Shown piece by piece: positions 18,261 through 22,010 of a DNA stretch of 64,000 bases (position 1 is its first letter; the number at the start of each line of letters is the position of its first letter). Source of the DNA: an uncultured Bacteroidota bacterium (lineage in GTDB: Bacteria; CLD3; SB21; JBBIRG01). The notes below the pieces were generated by a model. The model saw only the letters and a list, made by a program, of their open reading frames with translations. It did no database searches and was not told where the DNA came from. The translations under genes and the position numbers were made by a program. Where the stretch lies: assembly GCA_964609675.1 (NCBI GenBank), contig CAZSRX010000022.1, forward strand, positions 6,888 through 70,887. Direction: 5' to 3'.

Positions 18261-21200
18261 ATGCCAGCCAACAAAATTCAATTACAACAAGCATTACACA
18301 AACCTTACGACAGGGTTTTGTTTTCCCGTGAAGTTTTAAGTCCGGTTTTTGGTTCAGGATTTACGCTTAATTCCTCTTTAATGCCGGCATCGGTATCACC
18401 CAACAAATCGGAATCGGCTGTTATTGATAAAGTTTGGATTTACGGAAAAATTCAATTGGACGACAGCACCGAAATTACATGCTACGAAGTGAAGTTGCAA
18501 CCCAAAGTCCGCATCGAACAAAGCAGGGTGGCTATTCAGCAATATGTGCGCAAGCTACTTACAGCCGGGCAAGCGGCTTTAATCAACTTTGTGGCACCGG
18601 CAAATAAGAATGTATGGAGGCTTACGCTGGTTGCCAAAGACAGCGTGCTTACCGAAAAGGGGGTAAAAGAAAAAACCACCAATGCCAAACGATACACTTT
18701 TTTATTAGGCCCTTCGGAAAGCTGTAAAACAGCAGCCGAACGCTTTGAAACGCTGAGTACCGAAAAGGAAATTACGTTTCAAACACTTGTCAATGCCTTC
18801 TCCGTTGAAAAGCTGAGTAAAGCCTTTTTTGATGAATATACCCTGCATTACCAAAACTTTTGCGATTACCTGCAGGAATCCAACTACCGTAAATCGGTTT
18901 TCAATATTACCTTCCCTGCGGGTGCTTCAAAACAGGAAAAGGATAAAGCCGGTAAACCCATCCGTGATTTTGTAAAGAAACTGCTTGGGCGTATTGTGTT
19001 TCTATACTTCGTTCAGAAAAAGGGTTGGCTGGGTGCAAGCGATACCCATTACTCCGATGGTCTGGGCGATTTCATCAAACAACTTTTTCACCAATCGGGC
19101 GGAAACGATGCTTTTTACAGCAATTGGCTCACCGTTCTTTTCTTTGATACACTCAACAGGGAACGCCCCAACGATGATTTTACAATGCCCGATGCCCGCC
19201 TGCCGAACGGGCAGGGGAAAATGGTGAAAGTTCCTTTCCTCAACGGTGGTTTGTTCGACAAAGAGGAATTTGACGAACATTTGCTGACTTTTCCTGCAAA
19301 GCTTTTCCACAACCCCGATTTTGAGGATACCATATTAACCCCTAAAAACAATGGTTTTGCTCGCGGTTTTCTCGACTTTCTGGATGCCTTCAACTTTACT
19401 ATTTACGAAGACAGCCCCGACGACCACACCGTAGCCGTTGACCCGGAAATGTTAGGCCATATTTTTGAGAACCTTCTGGAGGACAACAAAGATAAAGGCG
19501 CTTTTTATACGCCCAAGGAAATTGTGCATTACATGTGCCAGGAAAGCCTGATTGAATATTTAGCAACAGGACTACAGAACCACTATACTGTTTATAGGCA
19601 ACTTGGTGATAATCAGATTGAATTATTTGGGAATGAAGTTCGAACTGGTCAACTGAAATTAATTGAAGAGTTGGGCGAAAAAGGTCTCGATAGAGAAGAA
19701 GTTGCCCATATGGTAAAAAACAAAGACATCAGTAAGTTAACCCAAAAACAATTATGCTCTATTGACAGTTTGCTCGATAAAGTAAAAATCTGCGACCCTG
19801 CCATCGGTTCCGGTGCATTCCCCATGGGCTTATTACAGGAAATCTTCAGCATTAAAGAACTCATTGCCTACGAAACCGGCAAGCCGTGGAACCCTGCCCA
19901 AACCAAGCTGAACATTATCCAAAACTCCATTTACGGGGTAGATATTGAAAAAGGTGCGGTGGATATTGCCCGCCTGCGCTTTTGGCTAAGCCTGGTAGTG
20001 GACGAAGAAAAGCCCAAAGCCCTGCCTAACCTCGATTATAAAATTGTGGTGGGCGACAGCCTCATAAGCAAGTTCGATGGCGAAATTGTGGAGATTGACT
20101 GGGAACGAAAAAGCAGTGTAGGCAAAGCCGATGCGTATGTACAAAATGTACAGCGACTGCTGAAAGAAGTTGCCGAAAAACAAAAGCAGTACTTTAGCCC
20201 CAACAACAAAAACAAAAAGAAACTGCAGGCAGACATCCGTAACCTGAAAATTGAATTGCTCATTAACCAACTTTCTTTTAATAAAGAGCTTTACATAAAC
20301 AAAACTGTGCAAAAAGGTGGCTTTATGCCCACGGCAGCCGATATTAAGCATAATACCGAACGTGAATTGCAAATTGCCGGTTTTAATAACCTGATTGGTA
20401 AACTGAAAAAACTGCTGCAACACCCCGATGAACCCTTTAACCATTTCGACTGGAAACTCGATTTCCCCGAAGTGCTCAACCCCTATCTGGTGCCCGATGA
20501 AAACCAACGGGGGTTTGATATTGTGATTGGGAATCCGCCGTATATTTCAACAAAAGGTATTGATAGTCAATATAAAATAATTTTGGAAAAAAAATTTGGC
20601 TTTGCTGATGATGCCTACAATCATTTTTTCTTCAAAGGAATTCAATTATTAAAAAACAATGCACTGTTGACCTACATTTCTTCTAAAACTTTTTGGACTA
20701 TACAAACAAAAAAGAATCTGCGTGAACTACTCTTGGGAAATACAATACTTCAATTATTTGATACTGCAAATCCTTTTGAAAATGCGATGGTTGATACCTG
20801 TGTTGCAATTGTAAAAAAAGCCCCTCCCCACTCAGAACACATTGTGTTATTCTTCGATGGTAAAACAAGTTTTACCGAACCCCAAAAGTATACCTTCCCC
20901 CAAAACAACTATGCTAATGCACCAAACAAAGTCTTTTTCATACCAACTGATCATAACAAAAAAATATACGACAAGTTCGGAAGAAAAGTAAATGAACTTC
21001 TTACCAAATGGTGGGATAAAATTTCAACAAGCAAGAATATTGAAAAAAATAAAATAGAACTTGAAACATACCGTAACTCTTTACAACCTGGTGATATTAC
21101 TTTATTGGGGCTCATTACTGAAGGTGGTCAAGGTTTAGCCACAGCTAACAATGGAAAATACATAGGTGTATTAGATGGTACTAAGTGGGCAGAAAATGTA

Positions 21201-22010
21201 AGAATACAAAGACCTGAAAAGCTGTTGTCAGCCACTGAATTTTGCAAAAAAGAAAATATAAAAAACAAAGCCGATGCTCAGCAATTTTTAAACGCACTTA
21301 GTGAACAAGAAATACGACAACTTTTTGATAATTTGAAAGAAAAGTACGGACGTGATATATTTGGTCAGGGCTGGCTATATCGTATTGTTAACGAGAATGA
21401 AATAGCCAATGTAGATTTGCTTACCGACGATGAAAAATTGAACGGGATTGAAGGTACAATAACCTTTGTGCCTTACGACAAAGGCGACAAAGACGGCAAC
21501 CGCTGGTACGCCCCAACACCGTATTATATCGATTGGAGTAGAGAGAATGTAAAAGTTTTACAAACAGACCCAAAAGCAAGATGGCAAGGTTACCAATTCT
21601 ATTTCCGTGAAGGGTTTTGCTGGAATAATGTTTTATCAGATGAAAAAATAAAATGTAGATTAAAAGAAAAGTCTGTTCATTCTACAGAGGCAATGACATT
21701 TATTTCATTAATACCTAATCTGGCAAATGACAAATATTTAGTATGTCTTTTAAATTCCACTTTTTTGGGCAATTATAGAATGGATTTTATTAATGTGTCA
21801 CATCACTTAACCACTGGCGATGCTAAAGAATTTCCAATAATTATCCCTACTTCGGACCAATTGAAACAATTTGAAGAAATTTTCAATAGGGCATACGGAG
21901 TTCAGAAATCAAAGTTTGAAGGTAAAATAAGTGAAGTCGAAGCAGAGAATCAGCTTGAAGTAATACAGAAAGAATTGGATGAAATGGTGGAAGAAATGTA
22001 TATGGAATAG
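18261..22010 (+). CDS. Large type IIG / MmeI-, Eco57I-, PglX-, DrmMI-like N6-adenine DNA methyltransferase, 1249 aa, possibly with an N-terminal PD-ExK nuclease
   Basis: AdoMet motif I KICDPAIGSGAFPMG and catalytic motif IV DIVIGNPPYIS. N-terminal LLGRIVFLYFVQKKGWLG box as in MmeI/PglX-like enzymes. D67/D68...E76-V-K78 (QLDDSTEITCYEVKLQ) has the same spacing as the MmeI D70-x9-E80-x-K82 nuclease motif. The C-terminal lysine-rich roughly 450 aa is presumably the target-recognition region. Confidence 0.85.
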   Translation: MPANKIQLQQALHKPYDRVLFSREVLSPVFGSGFTLNSSLMPASVSPNKSESAVIDKVWIYGKIQLDDSTEITCYEVKLQPKVRIEQSRVAIQQYVRKLLTAGQAALINFVAPANKNVWRLTLVAKDSVLTEKGVKEKTTNAKRYTFLLGPSESCKTAAERFETLSTEKEITFQTLVNAFSVEKLSKAFFDEYTLHYQNFCDYLQESNYRKSVFNITFPAGASKQEKDKAGKPIRDFVKKLLGRIVFLYFVQKKGWLGASDTHYSDGLGDFIKQLFHQSGGNDAFYSNWLTVLFFDTLNRERPNDDFTMPDARLPNGQGKMVKVPFLNGGLFDKEEFDEHLLTFPAKLFHNPDFEDTILTPKNNGFARGFLDFLDAFNFTIYEDSPDDHTVAVDPEMLGHIFENLLEDNKDKGAFYTPKEIVHYMCQESLIEYLATGLQNHYTVYRQLGDNQIELFGNEVRTGQLKLIEELGEKGLDREEVAHMVKNKDISKLTQKQLCSIDSLLDKVKICDPAIGSGAFPMGLLQEIFSIKELIAYETGKPWNPAQTKLNIIQNSIYGVDIEKGAVDIARLRFWLSLVVDEEKPKALPNLDYKIVVGDSLISKFDGEIVEIDWERKSSVGKADAYVQNVQRLLKEVAEKQKQYFSPNNKNKKKLQADIRNLKIELLINQLSFNKELYINKTVQKGGFMPTAADIKHNTERELQIAGFNNLIGKLKKLLQHPDEPFNHFDWKLDFPEVLNPYLVPDENQRGFDIVIGNPPYISTKGIDSQYKIILEKKFGFADDAYNHFFFKGIQLLKNNALLTYISSKTFWTIQTKKNLRELLLGNTILQLFDTANPFENAMVDTCVAIVKKAPPHSEHIVLFFDGKTSFTEPQKYTFPQNNYANAPNKVFFIPTDHNKKIYDKFGRKVNELLTKWWDKISTSKNIEKNKIELETYRNSLQPGDITLLGLITEGGQGLATANNGKYIGVLDGTKWAENVRIQRPEKLLSATEFCKKENIKNKADAQQFLNALSEQEIRQLFDNLKEKYGRDIFGQGWLYRIVNENEIANVDLLTDDEKLNGIEGTITFVPYDKGDKDGNRWYAPTPYYIDWSRENVKVLQTDPKARWQGYQFYFREGFCWNNVLSDEKIKCRLKEKSVHSTEAMTFISLIPNLANDKYLVCLLNSTFLGNYRMDFINVSHHLTTGDAKEFPIIIPTSDQLKQFEEIFNRAYGVQKSKFEGKISEVEAENQLEVIQKELDEMVEEMYME

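Follow-up and report, generated by a model that had tools for sequence, protein, structure and literature searches.

A large MmeI/PglX-type methyltransferase and its PLD-SNF2 partner as a probable two-gene restriction-modification-like module in an uncultured Bacteroidota bacterium

We analyzed a stretch of 64,000 nt from an uncultured Bacteroidota bacterium (contig CAZSRX010000022.1, positions 6,888 to 70,887 of the forward strand; hereafter the window), which encodes a DNA methyltransferase of 1249 amino acids (aa). This protein probably provides modification and specificity in an ATP-dependent module of two genes, resembling a restriction-modification (RM) system, and is not a self-contained type IIL/IIG enzyme. 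The partner gene encodes a protein in which a PLD domain with an HKD motif is fused to an SNF2 motor, and the locus belongs to a computationally recognized kind, the HKD-helicase plus methyltransferase restriction-like module. An original prediction, made from the letters of the window, had equipped the methyltransferase with a PD-ExK nuclease of its own, and offered a single-chain type IIL/IIG enzyme or an orphan PglX/DrmMI-like methyltransferase as the alternatives. As the one conserved nuclease (HKD) is located on the motor protein and the N-terminal domain of the methyltransferase looks degenerate, neither alternative appears to fit, and the protein is better described as a subunit of a two-gene system. 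The features of the two proteins are the following.

18261-22010, + strand: N6-adenine DNA methyltransferase/specificity subunit, 1249 aa, of PglX/MmeI-type architecture
18261-18776, + strand: N-terminal alpha/beta domain of the methyltransferase, aa 1-172, without a Pfam family
18459-18494, + strand: D67-D68...E76-V-K78 string, translating to DDSTEITCYEVK
18777-19757, + strand: helical spacer domain (helical in the model), including the FLYFVQKKGWLG box
19758-20900, + strand: gamma-class methyltransferase catalytic domain with motifs I and IV
20901-22010, + strand: variable C-terminal region, aa 881-1249, predicted to contain the target-recognition domain
14030-17389, + strand: fusion of PLD(HKD) and SNF2 in one protein of 1119 aa, predicted to act as an ATP-driven translocase and as a nuclease
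14426-14503, + strand: single HKD motif, H133-A-K135...G155-S-S-N158, translating to HAKVYIFRPATFNEYAPCEVITGSSN
14873-15124, + strand: SNF2 motif I GLGKT (aa 282-286) to motif II DESH (aa 362-365)

The open reading frame (ORF) of the methyltransferase is intact, and its N-terminal string reads QLDDSTEITCYEVKLQ. All the letters on which the original prediction was built (D67, D68, E76 and K78, the FLYFVQKKGWLG box, DPAIGSGAF and NPPY) are correct by translation. The FLYFVQKKGWLG box comprises aa 247-258 (18999-19034), with invariant F247, F250 and K254 and at least 90% conservation of W256 and G258; the Pfam family MmeI_hel is matched weakly (1.5e-4, below the cut-off) by one distant relative. 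Motif I, DPAIGSGAF, is found at aa 512-520 (19794-19820) and motif IV, NPPY, at aa 758-761 (20532-20543), with D512, P513, G516-A519 and N758-P760 invariant among the homologues. In a full-length model, built on aa 1-1200 from search-derived sequences and unreliable in its C-terminal 250 aa, a helical insert of ~100 aa (aa 622-720) separates the two motifs. The protein matches Eco57I (5e-31), MmeI_Mtase and N6_Mtase in Pfam, as well as the REase_MTase_IIG models of PADLOC, and the matches from Pfam, PADLOC and NCBIfam agree on the methyltransferase body.

The C-terminal half had been left unassigned in the original prediction, with a probable role in specifying the target. That role is supported by the sequence comparisons, whereas the region can no longer be called unassigned: aa 1066-1196 align to residues 711-837 of BrxX (phmmer against the PDB) and Pfam TaqI_C is present in the C-terminal region of most homologues. 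PADLOC PglX matches aa 1044-1220. The recognition domain of Salmonella PglX comprises residues 662-849 (PMC11341690), and close homologues of the methyltransferase align over ~68% of its length (the N-terminal part) at 75-83% identity, diverging thereafter. As the BrxX match falls within the recognition span of PglX and the C-terminus is swapped between close homologues, the C-terminus is supported as the variable, target-specifying part of the protein. In the phmmer search against the PDB, the matches were restricted to BrxX/PglX and TaqI and fell in the methyltransferase and recognition regions; with a full-length profile, MmeI, DrdV and BpuSI also align, again over these regions only.

The methyltransferase belongs to a large family. 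All 8000 scored candidates of a word-indexed search passed E <= 1e-10, so that the number of homologues is at least 8000, and a search with aa 1-450 gave 5117 cluster representatives at E <= 1e-3. At least 596 relatives occur in species-representative genomes, mostly in Bacteroidota and reaching archaea. An additional DUF559 domain (Vsr-like endonuclease fold, ~105 aa) is found in a few close homologues: P0049, P0069, P0072 and P0115 (locus L005, 10001-13915). In P0049 and P0072 it lies, according to Pfam, at approximately aa 457-575, within the variable loop that leads from the helical spacer to motif I; in P0069 and P0115 it is known from a precomputed PF04480 match alone.

The case for a nuclease in the methyltransferase had started from the claim that its D...ExK string reproduces the spacing of the catalytic motif of MmeI. 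In MmeI this motif is V69-D70...E80-M81-K82, or D70-x9-E80-x-K82 (PMC4833311), whereas the methyltransferase of the window (the query) has D68-x7-E76 or D67-x8-E76. Besides this difference in spacing, a D-x(7-9)-E-x-K pattern arises at least once in the first 170 aa of 19% of composition-matched shuffles. Two further copies of the pattern are found within the methyltransferase domain (aa 606 and 768), and the protein contains 9.4% K, 7.4% E and 6.2% D. Short D...ExK strings in Lys/Glu-rich proteins are no evidence of a nuclease.

Conservation of these positions was determined in three nested samples, comprising 119 close homologues (70-83% identical across the first ~850 aa), 150 representatives (reaching 42% identity) and 81 species loci. 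Position 78 is L in 105 of the 119 close homologues, the others having S (4), I (4), N (2), V, F, T or K (1 each), and the single Lys is that of the query. The 150 representatives have E29, T21, K19, I12, D11, L10, V9, R8 and others at this position, and the 81 species loci mainly T18, E17, L8, K7, I6 and R6. As Leu is found in 105 of the 119 close relatives, position 78 is not that of a catalytic lysine. Position 76 is better kept (E126 and D9 in the representatives, E52 and D15 in the species loci), as is position 68 (D110 and E21, and D56 and E8, respectively). Position 67 (D36, E22, S21, A21, N15) is variable among the representatives, only 15 of which contain [DE]..E.K, and position 56 (K32, E29, Q15, S14, D13) is variable across the family. 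In the most distant members that are still linked to the partner gene, E76 is replaced by Y, V, I, S or T and D68 by G, K or S. Replacement of D70, E80 or K82 of MmeI by Ala abolishes cleavage (PMC4833311), and mutation of K81 abolishes catalysis in DrdV. The D...(D/E)xK conservation expected of type IIL/IIG enzymes is not found in the homologues of the methyltransferase, and it was such a lack of conserved catalytic residues that the original prediction had itself named as refuting an active PD-ExK nuclease.

The residues of the N-terminal domain that are truly conserved are basic or structural ones. R120 and R144 are invariant in all 81 loci, and K/R143, R/K89, Y16, G62, T140, T146, Y147, G150 and T157 are essentially so. 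The strictly conserved basic residues R/K89, R120, K/R143 and R144 are found in a PKRYTYxLG...E.C.TA motif. With the signature WRF[ST] ... T.PKRYTY.LG..E.C.TAA.RF and thousands of members, the N-terminal domain of ~170 aa could be defined as a new domain family.

Structural modeling suggests a similarity of this domain to the restriction endonucleases in topology. The AlphaFold2 model of aa 1-172, built from 51 diverse sequences, has a pLDDT of 88.3 and a pTM of 0.83, and contains the elements H18-33, E34-42, E55-65, E71-79, H89-99 and E105-112 (H, helix; E, strand), followed by more strands; there are 7-8 strands within aa 34-149, and the full-length model reproduces the arrangement. The order of the elements indicates a core of alpha-beta-beta-beta-alpha-beta, as in restriction endonucleases. 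Among the top matches of a fold search were DrdV (6.2), a putative restriction endonuclease domain (6.0), HincII (5.6), BpuSI (5.3) and TT1808 (5.1), with further matches to Bax1, Hjc, RecU, BglI, AvaII, cap-snatching endonucleases and LlaBIII (4.4), all of the PD-(D/E)xK fold; these matches lend the fold weak support, and for multi-domain targets they refer to the target as a whole. Foldseek of the model against the PDB returned nothing significant, a Pfam scan of the 51 N-terminal domains matched no family (MmeI_N and the PD-(D/E)xK families included), and the domain profile found no match beyond chance among PDB sequences. A direct comparison with the N-terminal domain of MmeI is impossible because the nuclease domain is disordered in 5HR4 (PMC4833311), and the N-terminus of PglX is a helical bundle without an alpha/beta domain (PMC11341690). 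In the model, residues 66-70, with D67 and D68, form the turn of a long beta2-beta3 hairpin, and E76 and K78 are found towards the distal end of beta3; at such a separation, D67/D68 and E76 would not be able to bind a common metal ion. The canonical Asp position near the start of beta2 corresponds to D56 in the query. The N-terminal domain is plausibly a diverged restriction-endonuclease-like fold, and the residue frequencies suggest that the canonical active site is not maintained and that the domain is catalytically degenerate.

An active nuclease in this domain, giving the system two nucleases, is unlikely in our view. It would have to use either a non-canonical site (D68 and E76 with R/K89 or K143) or the triad D56/E76/K78 of the query. 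The non-canonical site draws on the acidic character of positions 68 and 76 in ~80-90% of the relatives and on the essentially invariant R/K89, R120, K/R143 and R144, and the distance from E76 to R89 resembles that in DrdV, where an accessory residue, K94, is located ~13 residues past the ExK; the triad has in its favor that its three residues co-occur in the query. In favor of an active nuclease in general, the related type IIG enzyme Cj0031 restricts phage. However, the triad depends on a lysine that is private to the query among its close homologues and on the variable position 56, and mutation of the equivalent lysine kills cleavage in MmeI and DrdV. Both acidic residues, on which either site would rely, are lost in distant members that retain the partner. 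The domain also has no profile link to nuclease families and no significant Foldseek match, some homologues have gained a separate DUF559 (Vsr-like) domain, and with an HKD partner that is nearly obligatory there is no need for a second nuclease. That the query regained a PD-ExK site through a private L78K change next to D56 and E76, and carries two nucleases in that way, is very unlikely.

The nuclease that is conserved is found on the partner protein. Its Pfam matches are PLDc_2, RE_NgoFVII (PLD, aa 97-201), SNF2-rel_dom and Helicase_C, and the PADLOC model HKD+Snf2 covers aa 40-1003 (2.6e-45). The PLD domain, which the original prediction had treated as a separate nuclease, is the N-terminal domain of this 1119-aa SNF2 protein, and the gene directly upstream of the methyltransferase gene encodes a KilA-N protein rather than a PLD nuclease. 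In place of two different nucleases and an SNF2 motor, as originally described, there is a single conserved nuclease (HKD), which is fused to the motor. Both the PLD domain, with its intact HxK...GSxN, and the SF2/SNF2 ATPase, with Walker A and DExH motifs, are present. Among 68 full-length partners H133 is conserved in 67, and K135, GSSN, GxGK(T/S) and DExH in all 68. This contrast with the ExK of the methyltransferase indicates that the nuclease and ATPase sites of the partner are under strict selection. The partner would therefore be the likely cutter, and by the same comparison the methyltransferase itself is most likely non-cutting. In one locus (L030, 4639-7944) the histidine of the partner's HKD motif is replaced by Gln (LQAKVYIF); the methyltransferase of this locus has no compensating ExK, positions 68, 76 and 78 being E, E and P.

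The strict conservation of the HKD site also bears on an exclusion mechanism akin to BREX or DISARM, in which classical cleavage would play no part, the SNF2 motor would remodel or evict replication and transcription complexes, and the PLD domain would be non-nucleolytic or regulatory. In NCBIfam the methyltransferase indeed matches BREX PglX best and the helicase DISARM DrmD, PglX has been interpreted solely as a methyltransferase rather than a restriction enzyme (PMC11341690), and a heading in PMC12707154 calls BREX 'restriction without cleavage'. We nevertheless consider such a mechanism improbable. The scores lie far under the cut-offs, PglX reaching 117.5 of the required 500 bits and DrmD 150 of 610. 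There is no PglZ, BrxC, BrxL, DrmA or DrmB in the island of the window (described below) or in the homologous loci, and the HKD motif, with its invariant H, K and GSSN, points to a catalytic phosphodiesterase.

The pairing of the two genes was surveyed in 86 loci, that is, the window and 85 fetched loci. A PLD-SNF2 homologue adjoins the methyltransferase gene in 76 of the 86. Nine of the ten loci without a partner have at most 1.1 kb of DNA upstream of the methyltransferase gene; in the tenth, an archaeal contig (L067), upstream ORFs are present but none is a partner homologue by phmmer. The distance from the partner stop to the methyltransferase start is within 60 nt in ~60 of 74 loci, often 1-6 nt or an overlap, and in most loci the two genes directly abut. 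Location on the same strand as the cognate methyltransferase gene, with operon-like spacing, was found in the window as well as in the loci. The gene order is reversed in two of the surveyed loci. At 30% identity or less, and in reversed order, the pairing recurs on plasmids of Haloferax alexandrinus and Deinococcus radiophilus, where a "helicase-related protein" contains PLDc_2, SNF2 and Helicase_C and the N-terminal domain of the methyltransferase is reduced or barely recognizable. These are loci L087/L088 (Haloferax plasmid) and L086/L089 (Deinococcus plasmid pRadio5). The core genes of the Deinococcus pair are separated by a DUF262 (GmrSD-like) gene and two small ones, and the N-terminal region of the methyltransferase is only ~95 aa, without the acidic motif.

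Overall, the pairing spans Bacteroidota, CPR, spirochaetes, Verrucomicrobia, Deinococcus and archaea, and adjacency across these lineages rules out chance co-location. A type II RM gene with an adjacent PLD and SNF helicase gene has been noted before (PMC9881135). An orphan or regulatory methyltransferase acting as an epigenetic switch, with the SNF2-PLD gene as an unrelated co-resident of the island, is accordingly very hard to sustain. Related Eco57I-type methyltransferases are subject to phase variation and programmed inversion affecting gene expression, and the island does hold several unrelated defence-candidate genes, as such a switch would allow; but the core genes are adjacent and co-oriented across lineages, often overlapping or at most 6 nt apart, and no inverted repeats able to invert the recognition domain were found.

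For the two-gene RM-like module we propose the following mechanism. By analogy with MmeI and PglX-type enzymes, the methyltransferase would read a short asymmetric site through its recognition domain and methylate one adenine, thereby marking self DNA. At an unmodified site it would recruit or license the PLD-SNF2 partner, which would translocate with ATP. In BfiI/Nuc-type enzymes two chains are needed for one PLD active site. As each partner chain contains one HKD motif, two partner molecules would have to pair to form the active site, and cleavage would follow dimerization or collision of converging complexes, as in type III and type ISP systems. The N-terminal domain (aa 1-172) would probably be a catalytically dead descendant of a restriction-nuclease-like domain, and in view of its conserved basic residues its role would most likely be docking or coupling to the partner or to DNA. 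It is possible, and we put this forward tentatively, that the pair forms a distinct, experimentally uncharacterized class of ATP-dependent RM system in which the dead N-terminal domain is reused as a coupling or licensing module that passes unmethylated sites on to the translocating HKD nuclease.

Several points weigh against this reading of the two genes. For a dead site, D68 (79-87% acidic) and E76 (83-90% acidic) are well kept, and the query does combine D56, E76 and K78. The geometric argument on D68 and E76 was drawn solely from secondary structure and strand register. Cleavage by the HKD domain, the dependence on ATP and the coupling of the two proteins are all inferred, and the searched literature gave only comparative-genomic mentions of the pair, and no biochemistry. 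Finally, a helix-turn-helix (HTH) gene upstream of the operon is broken, leaving expression of the operon in doubt.

The two genes are part of a low-GC island at approximately 12.9-24.6 kb of the window, with a GC content of 0.34-0.43 inside and ~0.5 in the flanks. All of its genes are on the + strand, in the order HTH remnant, PLD-SNF2, KilA-N, methyltransferase, DUF3644 and GxxExxY, and PADLOC identifies several unrelated defence candidates among them. The features of the island other than the core pair are:

12887-13049 (left copy) and 24476-24637 (right copy): direct repeat of ~160 nt, 94-97% identical, 11,588 nt apart
13739-14032, + strand: HTH_3 gene upstream of the operon, disrupted by an in-frame TGA and the deletion of 1 nt
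17429-18259, + strand: KilA-N protein, 276 aa (Pfam KilA-N, 1.4e-19; PADLOC PDC-S22, 1e-132)
22020-23063, + strand: DUF3644 protein, 347 aa (Pfam DUF3644, 2.4e-47; PADLOC PDC-S19, 1e-78)
23240-23680, + strand: small GxxExxY (PDDEXK_3) protein

A further pair of direct repeats is located at the island edges (13277-13299 and 24632-24654), and a fragment of an IS110-like transposase gene (ORF 12913-13203, minus strand) overlaps the left copy of the long repeat. The 11.6-kb island with its bracketing repeats has the appearance of a trace left by a mobile island, or by a duplication that arose on insertion. From their translations, we take the flanking genes to be ribonucleotide reductase on the left (9196-12357, minus strand) and RNase HII on the right (24958-25620, minus strand), the latter followed by what is presumably ribosomal protein S1. 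By megablast, the island has no match in complete E. coli genomes.

The HTH_3 remnant is 65% identical to residues 23-99 of a 99-aa HTH protein in locus L003. Its first 19 codons are in a different frame and terminate at a TGA, which replaces an Arg codon, and the 1-nt deletion lies a few codons downstream. In the close relatives L003 and L005 an intact gene for the 99-aa protein precedes the PLD-SNF2 gene, and its loss may change the control of the operon. As an HTH gene is found upstream in only ~11 of 85 loci, it is not part of the conserved core.

The KilA-N gene is situated between the two core genes, with gaps of 39 nt on the PLD-SNF2 side and 1 nt on the methyltransferase side. The junction between the core genes is a recurrent insertion slot (17390-18260 in the window, 9007-9999 in L005), which is also filled in L017, L031, L035, L040, L045, L049, L060, L074 and L085. 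It contains KilA-N in the window and in L045, RhuM/Fic in L005, YhcG/DUF1016 of the PD-(D/E)xK type in four loci, Schlafen-AlbA_2 with HATPase_c_4 in two, and an NYN RNase and an IS200 transposase in one each. The DUF3644 gene starts 9 nt past the methyltransferase stop and is therefore probably co-transcribed. As no DUF3644 gene is found downstream of the methyltransferase gene in L001, L003 and L005, it falls outside the conserved pair; in L003 its place is taken by a gene for an SMC/AAA_23-type ATPase that overlaps the methyltransferase stop. Genes similar to those of the insertion slot occur embedded in type I restriction operons. We infer that the KilA-N and DUF3644 genes are accessory genes of a kind common in restriction loci. 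The GxxExxY gene is flanked on both sides (23134-23311 and 23679-23858) by tandem pairs of an ~80-nt repeat with the core CTCTGTGCCCCTCCGTGCCCTCTGTGGT.

The assignment matters for annotation, since a REase_MTase_IIG match could suggest a cleavage activity that the sequence family does not support. Members of the family (more than 5,000 cluster representatives) would be better regarded as components of an ATP-dependent system of two genes. If the proposed coupling through the N-terminal domain holds true, the pair would offer a simple two-protein model of a methyltransferase that licenses a translocating nuclease, of relevance to BREX and DISARM, and the swappable recognition domain would be a possible source of new methylation specificities.

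Among known systems, the type IIL enzymes MmeI and DrdV are similar to the methyltransferase in their order of domains: the alpha/beta N-terminal domain is followed by a helical spacer, then by a gamma-class N6-adenine methyltransferase containing NPPY and finally by a C-terminal recognition domain. The single-chain arrangement of type IIL/IIG enzymes, with a spacer and motif I before NPPY and a recognition domain, is present here, and Pfam MmeI_Mtase matches. The differences are that D...ExK, essential in MmeI and DrdV, is not conserved here, that Pfam MmeI_N does not match, that the protein is ~300 aa longer, and that its methyltransferase domain contains a helical insert. Type IIL enzymes act alone and without ATP, whereas an HKD-SNF2 gene adjoins the methyltransferase gene in every informative locus but one; judged by gene context only, the self-sufficiency of a type IIL/IIG enzyme is not found here.

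With PglX/BrxX of BREX the methyltransferase shares a similarity that covers, in the BrxX matches from the PDB, both the methyltransferase motifs and BrxX 711-837, and as proposed here it would likewise provide modification and specificity and depend on partners for restriction. It differs in its alpha/beta N-terminal domain, that of PglX being an all-helical bundle (PMC11341690). We rejected identity with BREX PglX on the NCBIfam BREX_1_MTaseX score (117.5 bits, cut-off 500), and no PglZ, BrxC, BrxL, BrxA or BrxB gene is present in the island or the homologous loci. Class 1 DISARM contains comparable activities by PADLOC and NCBIfam, namely an SNF2 helicase (DrmD-like), an N6-adenine methyltransferase (DrmMI-like) and a PLD nuclease (DrmC-like), but here the PLD domain is fused to the SNF2 protein. 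Identity with Class 1 DISARM was also rejected, the DrmD score being 150 bits (cut-off 610) and DrmA and DrmB (DUF1998) being absent from the island and related loci.

In type III (Mod and Res) and type ISP (LlaGI, LlaBIII) systems, ATP-driven movement precedes cutting. As in these systems, the present pair combines a methyltransferase that has its own recognition domain and would mark one strand with a fusion of an SF2 ATPase and a nuclease. Whereas those enzymes combine a Res-type helicase with a PD-(D/E)xK or Mrr domain, the nuclease here is an HKD/PLD domain at the N-terminus of an SNF2 motor. The methyltransferase belongs to the MmeI/PglX type, as opposed to the beta-class Mod of type III, and there are two chains, as opposed to the single chain of type ISP. 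The R and N proteins of CglI/NgoAVII and the BfiI-type HKD nucleases may also resemble the partner.

An N-terminal HKD endoDNase joined to a Swi2/Snf2 or SF2 helicase has been interpreted as a restriction effector against which an N6-methyltransferase protects (PMC12839542, PMC10853773). The partner has the same HKD-helicase architecture as the effectors of type-2 BR systems and as PbeA of PbeABCD. However, BR systems need a DUF499 ATPase (with DUF3780 in type 2), and their methyltransferases are of the DUF1156/PglXI type. Identity with BR was rejected, as only HKD-Snf2 is shared and DUF499, DUF3780 and DUF1156 are absent from the Pfam scans of the island. PbeABCD further contains PbeC, an ABC ATPase of the CxC type, the DndE cognate PbeD and the small protein PbeB (PMC10853773), whereas the conserved core described here consists of two genes, no search having been aimed at Pbe components.

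In SauUSI, which requires ATP, an N-terminal PLD domain is combined with an ATPase and a recognition domain (PMC12707154). Like the partner protein, it couples a PLD nuclease domain with a single HKD motif to an NTP-hydrolyzing, helicase-like motor. SauUSI, a modification-dependent (type IV) enzyme, lacks a cognate methyltransferase, whereas the specificity of the PLD-SNF2 protein is predicted to be provided in trans, by the large MmeI/PglX-like methyltransferase encoded next to it.

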